From NCBI RefSeq assembly GCF_051307035.1, contig NZ_CP195536.1, positions 960,001-992,000 on the forward strand: a stretch of 32,000 nt of DNA. Direction: 5' to 3'. The notes beneath the pieces were generated by a model. It did no database searches, had not been told where the DNA came from, and saw only the letters and a program-made list of their open reading frames with translations. Source of the stretch: Psychrobacter sp. DM4. GTDB taxonomy: Bacteria > Pseudomonadota > Gammaproteobacteria > Pseudomonadales > Moraxellaceae. Position numbers and translations under genes: made by a program. Below, one piece after another: positions 1-3,186 of the stretch. Every line of letters starts with the position of its first letter. The first letter of the stretch is position 1.

Positions 1-1160
1 ATGCAGAAGGAAGCAATTTCATAAATTTTAAAATATGGTTTGAGAGTAATTATGAATTAGAAAGCTTTAAATATTTCGATGATTTTGAGGAGGTTTTTGA
101 AACTAAGAAACAGGAAGAGTATCTAGAATGGTGTGGTAATAATAGGCTCTTTATTAACGACTTAAACGATGTTTGTACATCTGAAGTTGTTTATCAAGAT
201 ATAATGACATTACCTTCAATTTCAGCTGAAATAAACATATCTTTAACTTTAGATGAAGAGCTTGTTTACCATGGCAATTTCGACGAAATCAAGAATGATT
301 ACTGCTACGCACGTTATCTAACATTTATTGCTCAAAATATGTCGAATGAAGAAGAGCATATATTTAATAAGACATATCCTCATGCTAACGATATATCTCA
401 CTCTATTACAAACATAAAAGCTAATCACTATAAAAGTGCTTTTAGAACTCTATATTCACTCTTTGATAAAATTGCATATTTTATTAATAGATTTTTTGAT
501 CTAAACAATATTGCAAAAGATCATAGAATTAGTTTTGATAGCCTTTTTAGACAGTTAAACAATAATAAAGGGTGGAAGCCGAACGACAAGCTCAGAGAAA
601 GTAATAACTATTTCATTCATGCATTATTCTATATTCTTAAAGACATTAAGGATGTAAAGGGAGTCACCCCTACAAGTCATTGGCTTGATCCCAATACGAA
701 AAAAATTTCAGAGATTAGAAACTCTATAGAACATCGTTCTTTAAAAATAGTCGATGATTTTGGAGACAAGTTAAACCAATTAGATAAGGTGTCCAAAGTA
801 TCTGAGCTGGAAAATATAAGAAGTGAAGTAATAGATTTAGAAAATAATATTGAAGTGTTAAGTGCTGAAATCACTGTGATAGGAAAAATAGAGAATAATG
901 CACTTAAGGAGCTTTTACAGAGCAAAATGCTAAACTTGAAAGATGATCTATTGGTTAAGAAATCAAAAGTTTATGAAAAGAATAAGCTTTCAAGTCATTC
1001 TTTGACTATTACAGAAAGTGACTTCAAAGAAAAGCTCATAACCTTGATGAAGCTTGTTCGTAACTCGATTATGTATATGTCATTGGCTATTCACTTAGAG
1101 GAAAGGAACAAGCTCAAGGATGATAGGCCTGTAATCAGTAGAGAGACACCTTTAAAATAG
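1..1160 (+). CDS. HEPN-domain protein (Rx4H motif, resembles the LA2681-like HEPN family), 5'-partial at the window edge, with a C-terminal coiled-coil segment
   Basis: Frame 3 is open from nt 3 to the stop at 1158-1160. Hand translation of 3-203 gives AEGSNFINFKIWFESNYELESFKYFDDFEEVFETKKQEEYLEWCGNNRLFINDLNDVCTSEVVYQDI with no stop. The first in-frame ATG (204) has no SD-like purine run upstream, so the gene probably starts left of the window. R-N-S-I-E-H (Rx4H) is encoded at 717-734, preceded by helical-looking 'AFRTLYSLFDKIAYFINRFF'. The heptad-like E/L/K/N-rich stretch 'LNQLDKVSKVSELENIRSEVIDLENNIEVLSAEI...KDDLLVKKSKVYEK' spans about nt 760-985. The family assignment is from memory of family consensus, not a search. 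Confidence 0.6.
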   Translation, partial: AEGSNFINFKIWFESNYELESFKYFDDFEEVFETKKQEEYLEWCGNNRLFINDLNDVCTSEVVYQDIMTLPSISAEINISLTLDEELVYHGNFDEIKNDYCYARYLTFIAQNMSNEEEHIFNKTYPHANDISHSITNIKANHYKSAFRTLYSLFDKIAYFINRFFDLNNIAKDHRISFDSLFRQLNNNKGWKPNDKLRESNNYFIHALFYILKDIKDVKGVTPTSHWLDPNTKKISEIRNSIEHRSLKIVDDFGDKLNQLDKVSKVSELENIRSEVIDLENNIEVLSAEITVIGKIENNALKELLQSKMLNLKDDLLVKKSKVYEKNKLSSHSLTITESDFKEKLITLMKLVRNSIMYMSLAIHLEERNKLKDDRPVISRETPLK

Positions 1161-1530: not shown

Positions 1531-3186
1531 CTAGGACGGTATATCGAGTTGTCGTAATTTGCGAGTCAAAGTATTGCGGCCCCAGCCGAGCAAGTTGGCA
1601 GCCGCTATTTTTTTACCGCCCGTATGCTCAAGCGCTGCGGTTAGTAGGACACGCTCAAACTCAGGCATTGCAGTTTGCAAAATATCAGTCGCGCCTGATT
1701 GCAAAGCTTGCTGCGCCCAATCAGATAAGAGTAGTTGCCATTTATCAGGGTCATAAGAGTCAGACGCCGCCGCTATCGATGAAGGCTGACTGCTTTTTTG
1801 TGCATCGTCGCTAATGGACGTTTGAGCGAGCAGTTCAGGCGGCAAATCTTCACTCATAACGGTATCGCCTACTGTCATAACCGTGAGCCATAGGCAGACA
1901 TTCTCCAACTGACGGACATTACCACGCCACTCAAACCCTTGCATAATACGCATGGTGTCCGTGTGTAGCTGCTTTGGCTCTGTACTCATTTGCTCAGCTG
2001 CGCGCAGCATAAAGTAGTCCGCCAAGGCGTGAATATCATCGGTACGCGCGCGCAGTGGTGGTAGCGGCATACGGATGACATTGAGCCGATAGAATAGATC
2101 TTCACGAAACTTGCCTTGCTGAACTAAGTGCTCAAGGTTTTGATGCGTGGCGGCAATGATACGCACATCGACCTTGACGGGCTGCTGACCACCAACTCGA
2201 TAAAACTCCCCATTTGCTAACACTCGTAACAGCCTAGTTTGAGTGCTAAACGGCATATCACCGATTTCATCAAGGAATAGTGTGCCACCGTTCGCTTGTT
2301 CAAAGCGTCCTTGCCTACGCGTAGTCGCTCCTGTGAACGCGCCTTTTTCGTGTCCAAATAGCTCAGACTCAATCAAATCATGCGGGATTGCCGCCATATT
2401 TAGTGCGATAAAAGGCTGCTGCGCACGCGGCGAATGTTGATGTAGTGCCTCTGCAACAAGCTCTTTGCCCGTACCTGATTCTCCTGTAATGAGAACGGTA
2501 ATCGGGGAATGTGCCAGACGTCCGATAGCACGAAAGACTGTTTGCATCGCTTGCGACTGACCAATAATACCGCTGGGATTGGTGTTGGTGTCATTAGTAG
2601 CTTCAACTTGAGACAGTTTTTTTACTTGATGTTTAGGTTTTGCTTGAGCTGGCTTATCTTTTTTTACAAATGTCTTTTTTGTGTCATCTTCCATCACCGT
2701 TTTTTTGTCATCGTCAGTGGGCTGGGGGTCATTGCTGGTATTATTCGTTGGTTGATACTCGATAGCTTTATGAATCGTCGCGACGGCATCGTCCAAATCA
2801 AAAGGCTTGGGCAGATACTCAAACGCGCCTGCTTGATAGCTATTAACTGCCGAGGTAATGTCTGAATGCGCGGTCATAATGACAATAGGTATATCAGGGA
2901 AGTGCTGGTGCACCCAGTCGCTAAAAGATAAACCGTCCATCATCGGCATACGAATATCGGTCAAAATCACATCAGGTAAAGATCGCGATTCGCGCTGCTC
3001 TAAGATATCATTGAGGCGCGTCCATGCCGCTTGCGCTTGGGTAAAGCTAATGACGTTAAAGTTGGCATCGGTAAAGGTATCGGCAAGTATGAGGCGCAGT
3101 GCGGCGTCGTCATCGATCAGCCACAGAGTTGCGATAGTTTTTGCTATAGGTGACAAATTATGAGTATTTTTGCTAGGTTCAGTCAT
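1531..3186 (-). CDS. ntrC: Sigma54-dependent nitrogen regulation response regulator NtrC (receiver + AAA+ + HTH)
   Basis: Receiver domain (LIDDD...[10 protein letters not shown]...KPFD). The AAA+ core '[53 protein letters not shown]' is almost identical to enteric NtrC, including the GAFTGA loop. C-terminal Fis-type HTH '[20 protein letters not shown]'. It lies directly downstream of ntrB. Confidence 0.92.

Follow-up and report, generated by a model that had tools for sequence, protein, structure and literature searches.

Bacterial immunity repeatedly employs HEPN RNases as effectors, among them Cas13, Csm6, PrrC, the Abi proteins and HepS, and how stand-alone HEPN proteins are silenced and triggered is known for very few of them. 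AbiD, AbiF, AbiJ, AbiU2, AbiV, ApeA and PrrC/RloC are Rx4-6H RNase effectors carried on mobile DNA near restriction-modification and other defense genes (PMC3710099). HepS, the solo HEPN protein of the Gifsy-1 prophage, is a proven abortive-infection RNase in which an autoinhibited tetramer is opened by the tail-tip protein J and cuts the anticodon loops of the tRNAs for Thr, Ile and Ser (PMC13043305). Tha of Staphylococcus aureus prophages, also a proven abortive-infection RNase, is a HEPN protein that is activated by a structural phage protein (PMC11087260). The LA2681 family appears in a 2013 survey of HEPN proteins with a conserved active site, and is listed there as fused to TPR repeats or in an operon with them (PMC3710099, Table 1). 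Here we describe an LA2681-family HEPN protein, with an intact predicted catalytic set, that is encoded at the start of a 32,000-nt stretch of DNA from Psychrobacter sp. DM4 (the window). The gene probably specifies a stand-alone, mobile-element-borne HEPN RNase that serves as a one-protein abortive-infection (anti-phage) toxin, a reading to which we assign a probability of roughly 60%. The family has already been named and suspected of a role in conflict; what is new is a coiled-coil expansion between HEPN helices 3 and 4 together with a consistent hot-spot context, and the locus represents neither a new kind of system nor a surprise.

Translation of the window revealed that plus-strand frame 3 is uninterrupted from nt 3 to a TAG stop codon at nt 1158-1160. 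Over its whole length, the encoded fragment matched, at 100% identity, the C-terminal 385 residues of a Psychrobacter sp. DM4 protein of 576 aa, which NCBI lists under the LA2681 HEPN name. On the basis of this translation and identity, nt 3-1160 (plus strand) are assigned as a partial coding sequence comprising the last 385 codons and the stop codon of a 576-aa LA2681-family TPR-HEPN protein, the start codon of which lies ∼570 nt upstream of the window start. Residue numbers used here are those of the full-length protein, and nt numbers are those of the window. A preliminary description of this DNA had presented the gene as a 318-aa open reading frame (ORF) with an ATG at nt 204. That ORF is an artifact of the window edge and, because the protein has 576 residues, the catalytic residues numbered R172 and H177 in the shorter frame become R430 and H435. 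The motif R-N-S-I-E-H itself was found in frame 3 at nt 717-734, exactly where it had been placed, and the three peptides that were quoted with it, YKSAFRTLYSLFDKIAYFINRFF, EYLEWCGNNRLFINDLNDV and KLITLMKLVRNSIMYMSLAIHLEE, are all present in the frame 3 translation.

The window fragment matched the Pfam model PF18733 (HEPN_LA2681) with an E-value of 2.3e-38 and a score of 132 bits, and the full-length protein scored 130 bits; the curated gathering threshold of the model is 27 bits. The original assignment to LA2681-like HEPN proteins is therefore correct by profile hidden Markov model score. The main match covers residues 275-456 (nt 252-797, plus strand) and profile positions 5-172 of 204, and the region of the query that is homologous to LA2681 proteins extends from residue ∼70 to residue ∼445 and includes the last helix. 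A secondary match to Pfam PF18730 (HEPN_Cthe2314) at residues 333-482, with 33 bits against a cut-off of 27.1, supports placement in the HEPN clan. An NCBIfam scan of the protein gave no informative match, and a profile search of all PDB chains returned no HEPN protein, only coiled-coil noise such as GCN4 and ClpC.

An exhaustive family search yielded 858 clusters at 50% identity with E ≤ 1e-3, and 577 with E ≤ 1e-10, from which 133 family representatives were drawn for alignment. D346, R430 and H435 were present in 100% of these representatives, E434 in 95% and N431 in 90%, and in the last helix R544 was present in 97% and Y549 in 91%. Among 40 closer homologues (45-87% identity), R430, N431, E434, H435, R436 and S437 were invariant. 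Conservation of the Rx4H residues, on which the initial proposal depended, was thus borne out at both levels. Given a Pfam HEPN_LA2681 score far above cut-off and this degree of residue conservation, RNSIEH is not a chance occurrence of an Rx4H pattern.

An AlphaFold2 model, computed from the 40-sequence alignment (mean predicted local-distance difference test score (pLDDT) 80.6; predicted template modeling score 0.78), was used to delimit the domains. In the HEPN fold, the Rx4-6H motif lies at the end of helix 3, an acidic residue is located in helix 2, and the usual variable insert falls between helices 2 and 3 (PMC3710099). In the model, the motif and an invariant acidic residue fall at the corresponding positions. 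HEPN helix 1 corresponds to residues 284-302, and helix 2 to residues 328-355 (nt 411-494, plus strand), which include the peptide YKSAFRTLYSLFDKIAYFINRFF and the invariant acidic residue D346 (nt 465-467). The insert between helices 2 and 3 contains a helix at residues 394-406. Helix 3 is formed by residues 421-434 (nt 690-734, plus strand) and ends in the catalytic motif R430-N-S-I-E-H435. The last helix, HEPN helix 4, spans residues 529-559 (nt 1014-1106, plus strand); it is supported by the model, the alignments and a second stretch of Pfam match, and R544 (nt 1059-1061) and Y549 (nt 1074-1076) within it are conserved throughout the family. In the clade to which the query belongs, the segment VRNSIMYMSL of this helix (nt 1053-1082) echoes the segment IRNSIEHRSL of the catalytic helix (nt 714-743). 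The possibility that the last helix is a duplicated second catalytic helix was considered and rejected as unlikely; only R544 and Y549 are conserved across the family, and the 'NS' pair is specific to the clade.

The principal structural departure lies between helices 3 and 4. A clade-specific coiled-coil hairpin occupies residues 443-522 (nt 756-995, plus strand), according to the model and the alignments; a turn of 2 residues connects its arms, which comprise residues 453-487 and 490-522 (pLDDT 84-93). The hairpin sits at the tip of a small two-stranded element and starts eight residues past the catalytic histidine. The first strand of this element, LKIV (residues 438-441; nt 741-752, plus strand), lies at the base of the hairpin and is conserved family-wide; the second, LTIT (residues 525-528; nt 1002-1013, plus strand), is predicted to pair with it. 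The preliminary description had placed a coiled coil of roughly 75 aa between the motif helix and the last helix. The location was right, and the coiled coil is predicted with confidence, from the structural model, to be not one long helix but an intramolecular antiparallel two-helix hairpin of ∼70-80 aa.

The heptad-like stretch rich in E, L, K and N that had drawn attention to this region is genuine, being helical in the model and showing hydrophobic positions that hold a 3-4-3-4 spacing on both arms across the 40 homologues. When the query was tested as a single sequence, the heptad signal was marginal for arm 1 (p ∼0.05) and not significant for arm 2, such that the pattern is clear at the alignment level only. 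The hairpin sequence is variable, with the agreement on a majority residue per column averaging 0.43, as compared with 0.78-0.81 in the flanks. Within the clade, its length changes by 3, 8 or 17 residues through nested indels around the predicted turn.

The hairpin is confined to part of the family. The distance from the catalytic arginine to the C terminus is 143-149 residues in the query clade, 99-139 in intermediate relatives and mostly 80-96 in the bulk of the family. Alignment of the C-terminal regions revealed graded inserts of ∼0, 10, 35, 55, 70 and 80 residues at one point, with the flanking strands and the last helix conserved. In the 133-sequence alignment, 80-90% of the sequences were gapped over residues 451-510, and ∼85% of the representatives have a short loop in place of the hairpin. 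Typical members match the Pfam profile contiguously over positions 4-204, in contrast to the query, in which the match is split near profile position 172. The clade that carries the hairpin is mostly gammaproteobacterial but also includes Desulfovibrionales, Snodgrassella and a Fimivivens metagenome-assembled genome. The coiled coil was also considered as a hallmark of the family and rejected as such, given its absence from ∼85% of the representatives. Because the modeled hairpin emerges beside the active site, it is probably not part of the catalytic core but a gate, an oligomerization arm or a docking arm. Obligate dimerization or partner docking through it, as put forward in the preliminary description, is a putative role.

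Residues 1-260, most of which are encoded outside the window, form an all-helical, TPR-like solenoid in the model. The best Foldseek matches to this region in the PDB were the TPR proteins LGN, Rap, NprR and NASP, and these were weak (E 3e-3; template modeling score 0.27-0.45). Pfam TPR models scored below threshold in typical LA2681 members and gave no match in the query protein. The end of this domain, residues 192-260, lies within the window at nt 3-209 (plus strand); its assignment draws on the model, the weak Foldseek matches and the family-wide conservation of Y231, W234, L240, N243, N246, D247 and D257. Across the TPR-like domain as a whole, polar residues that are invariant or nearly so were observed at R85, N111, G120-R121, D158, H161, Y231, W234, N243, N246, D247 and D257, and HEPN helix 1 likewise has two residues, K288 and R295, that are conserved family-wide (residues 192-295, nt 3-314, are those within the window). 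This degree of polar conservation exceeds what a repeat scaffold needs and, as judged from the alignments, suggests a second functional surface that may bind RNA or a ligand or may form the interface with the HEPN domain.

The neighborhoods of homologues place the gene on mobile DNA. Homologues were found in non-housekeeping contexts, namely prophages, integrative and conjugative elements (ICEs), tRNA and tmRNA islands and plasmids, often beside known defense genes. The Edwardsiella piscicida homologue is prophage-borne; Rha and RecT flank it, and HigBA and GmrSD are close by. In Pseudomonas silvicola, the gene is carried by an ICE (TrbL, NikA-like), where its neighbors are GmrSD and a gene whose 1275-aa product was matched to PD-Lambda-4_A. 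In Serratia liquefaciens, a P2-like prophage carries the homologue at its portal-gpA junction, where old and tin lie on the P2 map, next to a cyclase of the cyclic-oligonucleotide-based anti-phage signaling system (CBASS) with Cap15. In this prophage (locus L032, 8001-12651), the LA2681 gene and the CBASS operon, which comprises a DncV-like cyclase and Cap15, form a two-system load at one hot spot. Hot spots of defense cargo in P2 prophages have been described (PMC9122126).

Comparable settings recur in other hosts. In Proteus mirabilis, a lambdoid prophage carries the gene, located between its lysis and antiterminator-Q regions, beside a SEFIR/TIR protein and a DUF2971 protein. The Vibrio chagasii island that holds the homologue also encodes CBASS, VspR, an AAA_15/HNH pair and an integrase. 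In Klebsiella, the homologue is plasmid-borne (IncF) and adjoins IS1, together with an HNH endonuclease and a GNAT/DUF1778 toxin-antitoxin pair. In Escherichia coli, the gene is present in 11 of 5426 complete genomes. In this species, a copy that is disrupted and adjoins Hok/Gef belongs to a Rac-like prophage; others immediately follow an ssrA-integrase in a mobilizable island or lie at an ICE edge beside a ptaRNA1 toxin. The order tmRNA-integrase-HEPN is seen in Pantoea as it is in E. coli, and a further homologue locus abuts tRNA-Asn. A PADLOC scan of four genes on each side at 20 loci returned strong matches to PD-Lambda-4_A (two loci), Upx, TmtA, Drt8, SduA, PifA and MADS components. Among the homologue neighbors, a Pfam scan identified integrases and transposases as well as NikA-like proteins, with ordinary genes at the island borders. 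In descriptive terms, the gene is thus recurrently placed in defense islands and mobile-element hot spots beside known defense genes.

Several homologues are disrupted. The copy in E. coli NWU_3 (locus L043, 9007-10746) is present as two ORFs beside a pseudo-integrase, that in Snodgrassella (L018, 9977-11706) is frameshifted, and that in Vibrio crassostreae (L026/L027) is split over two contigs. Such disruption fits a costly or dispensable accessory gene. The Marichromatium, Halomonas, Larsenimonas and E. coli 504838 loci (L013, L014, L015 and L045) have common sequence on both flanks of the gene, and ICE-type genes (NikA-like and TrbL/TrbJ) are annotated in the E. coli 504838 locus and in a related Pseudomonas locus. 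Together, these observations suggest that one ICE family carries the HEPN cargo across distant hosts.

No partner gene was apparent. Clustering of ORFs of at least 70 aa at 28 genome loci revealed no conserved neighbor, integrases (5 loci) being the sole recurrent class. At 34 loci, small ORFs (25-150 aa) were compared up to 700 nt from the gene in both directions, and none was conserved beyond four loci with a common ICE backbone. That no neighbor is conserved in the 34 loci indicates that the gene works alone. A type II toxin-antitoxin pair of the HEPN-MNT-like kind was considered and rejected, since neither set of loci contained a conserved adjacent ORF. The preliminary description had cast the protein as a candidate effector of an uncharacterized defense or toxin module; the accessory, defense-associated setting holds, but a multi-gene module does not, as there is no conserved neighbor ORF.

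The Psychrobacter locus itself lies at an island edge. The first 1000 nt of the window have a guanine-plus-cytosine (GC) content of 29.6%, as compared with 41-48% in every other 1-kb bin and ∼44% overall. A tRNA-Leu gene (anticodon TAG) is located at nt 1237-1321 on the minus strand with its 3′ end facing the low-GC island, and is assigned as the island/core boundary from the tRNA call, the composition and the core genes beyond. The suggestion that the gene sits next to a tRNA gene in foreign DNA is confirmed by these data. The change in composition at the tRNA-Leu 3′ end is sharp, separating nt 1-1236 from nt 1237-32000. Beyond the tRNA gene, the core chromosome encodes an NtrC/NtrB-like pair and a radical-SAM methylthiotransferase, along with pyrH, frr, uppS, cdsA, dxr, rseP and bamA. 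Low GC up to tRNA-Leu, with core genes on its far side, implies that the foreign island stops at the tRNA 3′ end and that the HEPN gene is its final cargo gene.

These results can be accommodated by the following proposed scheme. The protein would be made constitutively and held in an autoinhibited state. A phage-derived cue could then be sensed by the TPR-like domain, the hairpin or both, upon which two protomers may join their Rx4H helices into a composite active site, by analogy with other HEPN RNases. Cleavage of tRNA, mRNA or rRNA would halt translation and abort the infection. The gene is regarded as a reasonable experimental candidate, good but unproven, for a one-gene anti-phage suicide switch.

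Several observations weigh against a one-protein abortive-infection toxin. In our searches, no member of the family had been shown by experiment to cleave RNA, to be toxic or to protect against phage, and neither PADLOC v2.0 nor PHROGs contains a model that matches it, such that it does not correspond to a defense system described in those libraries. A tblastn search of 50,697 phage records gave one weak and distant match only. The association with defense genes is a descriptive one, drawn from annotated neighborhoods and not from an enrichment statistic or a background comparison. Sequence conservation in the N-terminal domain is rather high, an atypical property for a fast-evolving sensor, and the context of the Photobacterium homologue consists mainly of housekeeping genes on its visible side. 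In Psychrobacter, the rest of the island, including the upstream neighbors of the gene, the far end and any integrase or att repeat, lies outside the window.

The literature is sparse. The view that the family has no experimentally defined role agrees with our literature searches, in which no experimental characterization was found, and searches for TPR-HEPN terms found nothing. Among the papers searched, only the 2013 HEPN survey (PMC3710099) names the LA2681 family in its main text. In the supplement of DefensePredictor, a machine-learning screen (PMC13092281), the E. coli LA2681 protein WP_244588239.1 (335 aa) appears as a 'predicted novel defense gene' with a log-odds value of 9.1; 'LA2681' was not found in the table of cloned proteins from that study.

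The first alternative to be weighed is that the protein is an addiction or stabilization toxin which mainly keeps the island, prophage or ICE in the cell instead of stopping phages and the antidote of which is not a neighboring protein; a small RNA, or inhibition of the protein by its own TPR-like domain, could for example fill that part. HEPN domains are common as toxins of toxin-antitoxin systems (PMC3710099), and the gene is found at ICE and island edges next to type I toxins (Hok/Gef and ptaRNA1) and toxin-antitoxin pairs. Against this, the 34 loci contain no conserved adjacent ORF of any size, the gene moves as single-gene cargo among unrelated P2-like and lambdoid prophages, ICEs and plasmids, and the genes with which it is co-located are bona fide defense genes rather than maintenance genes. 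We therefore regard a stabilization toxin as unlikely.

It is also quite unlikely that the protein is a weapon or regulator serving the mobile element itself, for example, by shutting off host RNA at prophage induction or by competing with satellites or other elements. The many copies inside prophages, near lysis and late genes or at the P2 portal-gpA junction, would suit such a role, yet equally many are carried on ICEs, plasmids and small integrative islands that lack phage genes. Moreover, the P2 junction and the lambdoid accessory-gene sites are classic positions of defense cargo (PMC9122126). A role of this kind overlaps with the defensive one, and sequence alone can hardly distinguish the two. 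That the protein is a housekeeping enzyme of RNA processing, or a helical scaffold without catalytic activity, is very improbable, despite the adjoining tRNA gene and core gene cluster and the occurrence of HEPN domains in RNA-processing enzymes such as Las1 (PMC3710099), given a GC content 14 points below the genome average, the few E. coli genomes that carry the gene, the existence of pseudogenized copies, the mobile-element neighborhoods and the invariant catalytic residues.

Beyond the one-protein abortive-infection toxin that we favor, a more ambitious proposal may be entertained, although we consider it doubtful as a whole. The hairpin would be a new regulatory arm of HEPN proteins, a fast-evolving antenna that clamps two protomers in an inactive state or directly binds a phage protein, and the RNase would be switched on when this arm is displaced. 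On this view, the LA2681 family would constitute a widespread and unrecognized one-protein defense system with an activation logic unlike that of HepS, Tha, PrrC or Cas13, and the invariant polar surface of the N-terminal domain would be a platform for the RNA substrate.

The family is large and occurs across phyla on mobile elements, and the clade described here provides a natural structure-function handle, namely one catalytic core with and without a long coiled-coil hairpin near the active site. Should the family be shown to be anti-phage, a compact one-gene system would be gained, together with a regulatory geometry that is new for HEPN nucleases; should it not serve in defense, its strong association with hot spots would in turn call for an explanation.

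Three further features were noted around the tRNA-Leu gene. At nt 1182-1205, between the convergent HEPN and tRNA-Leu genes, the sequence contains a GC-rich hairpin of 10 bp that has T-runs on each strand and is likely to be a bidirectional terminator shared by the two. A near-consensus sigma-70 promoter-like site (TTGCCA-16-TATAAT, 11/12) is located at nt 1410-1437 on the minus strand, ∼90 nt upstream of tRNA-Leu. In the NtrC-like sigma-54 activator (nt 1531-3186, minus strand), the receiver and AAA+ domains are connected by an unusually long linker of charged, low-complexity sequence, at approximately residues 145-205, in which D, K, T, N and Q are abundant.

Comparison with described HEPN proteins places the query closest to typical LA2681 members, with which it shares the Rx4H motif and a predicted N-terminal TPR-like domain. 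It differs from them in its Pfam score (130 bits, as compared with 240-256) and in having a 70-80-aa hairpin where they have a 10-20-aa loop, the query clade being divergent. Cthe_2314-like HEPN proteins (PF18730) give a far weaker score than LA2681 and are listed without known associations. The classical Abi proteins, ApeA, PrrC and RloC are unlike the query in that none of their PADLOC models matches it, and PrrC and RloC pair the HEPN domain with an ABC ATPase sensor. The long coiled coil of RloC lies in the ATPase and not in the HEPN domain. Tha belongs to a different HEPN family and its host to a different phylum, and it is likened to the query by description alone. HepS has no sequence relation to the query that was detectable in the PDB profile search; it is reported as a single HEPN domain with neither TPR nor coiled coil (PMC13043305), and its trigger (J) and its targets (the tRNAs for Thr, Ile and Ser) are not transferable. 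It is nevertheless a single, prophage-encoded HEPN protein that, like the query, has a canonical Rx4-6H motif and no partner gene, and it provides the best functional analogue of the mechanism proposed here.

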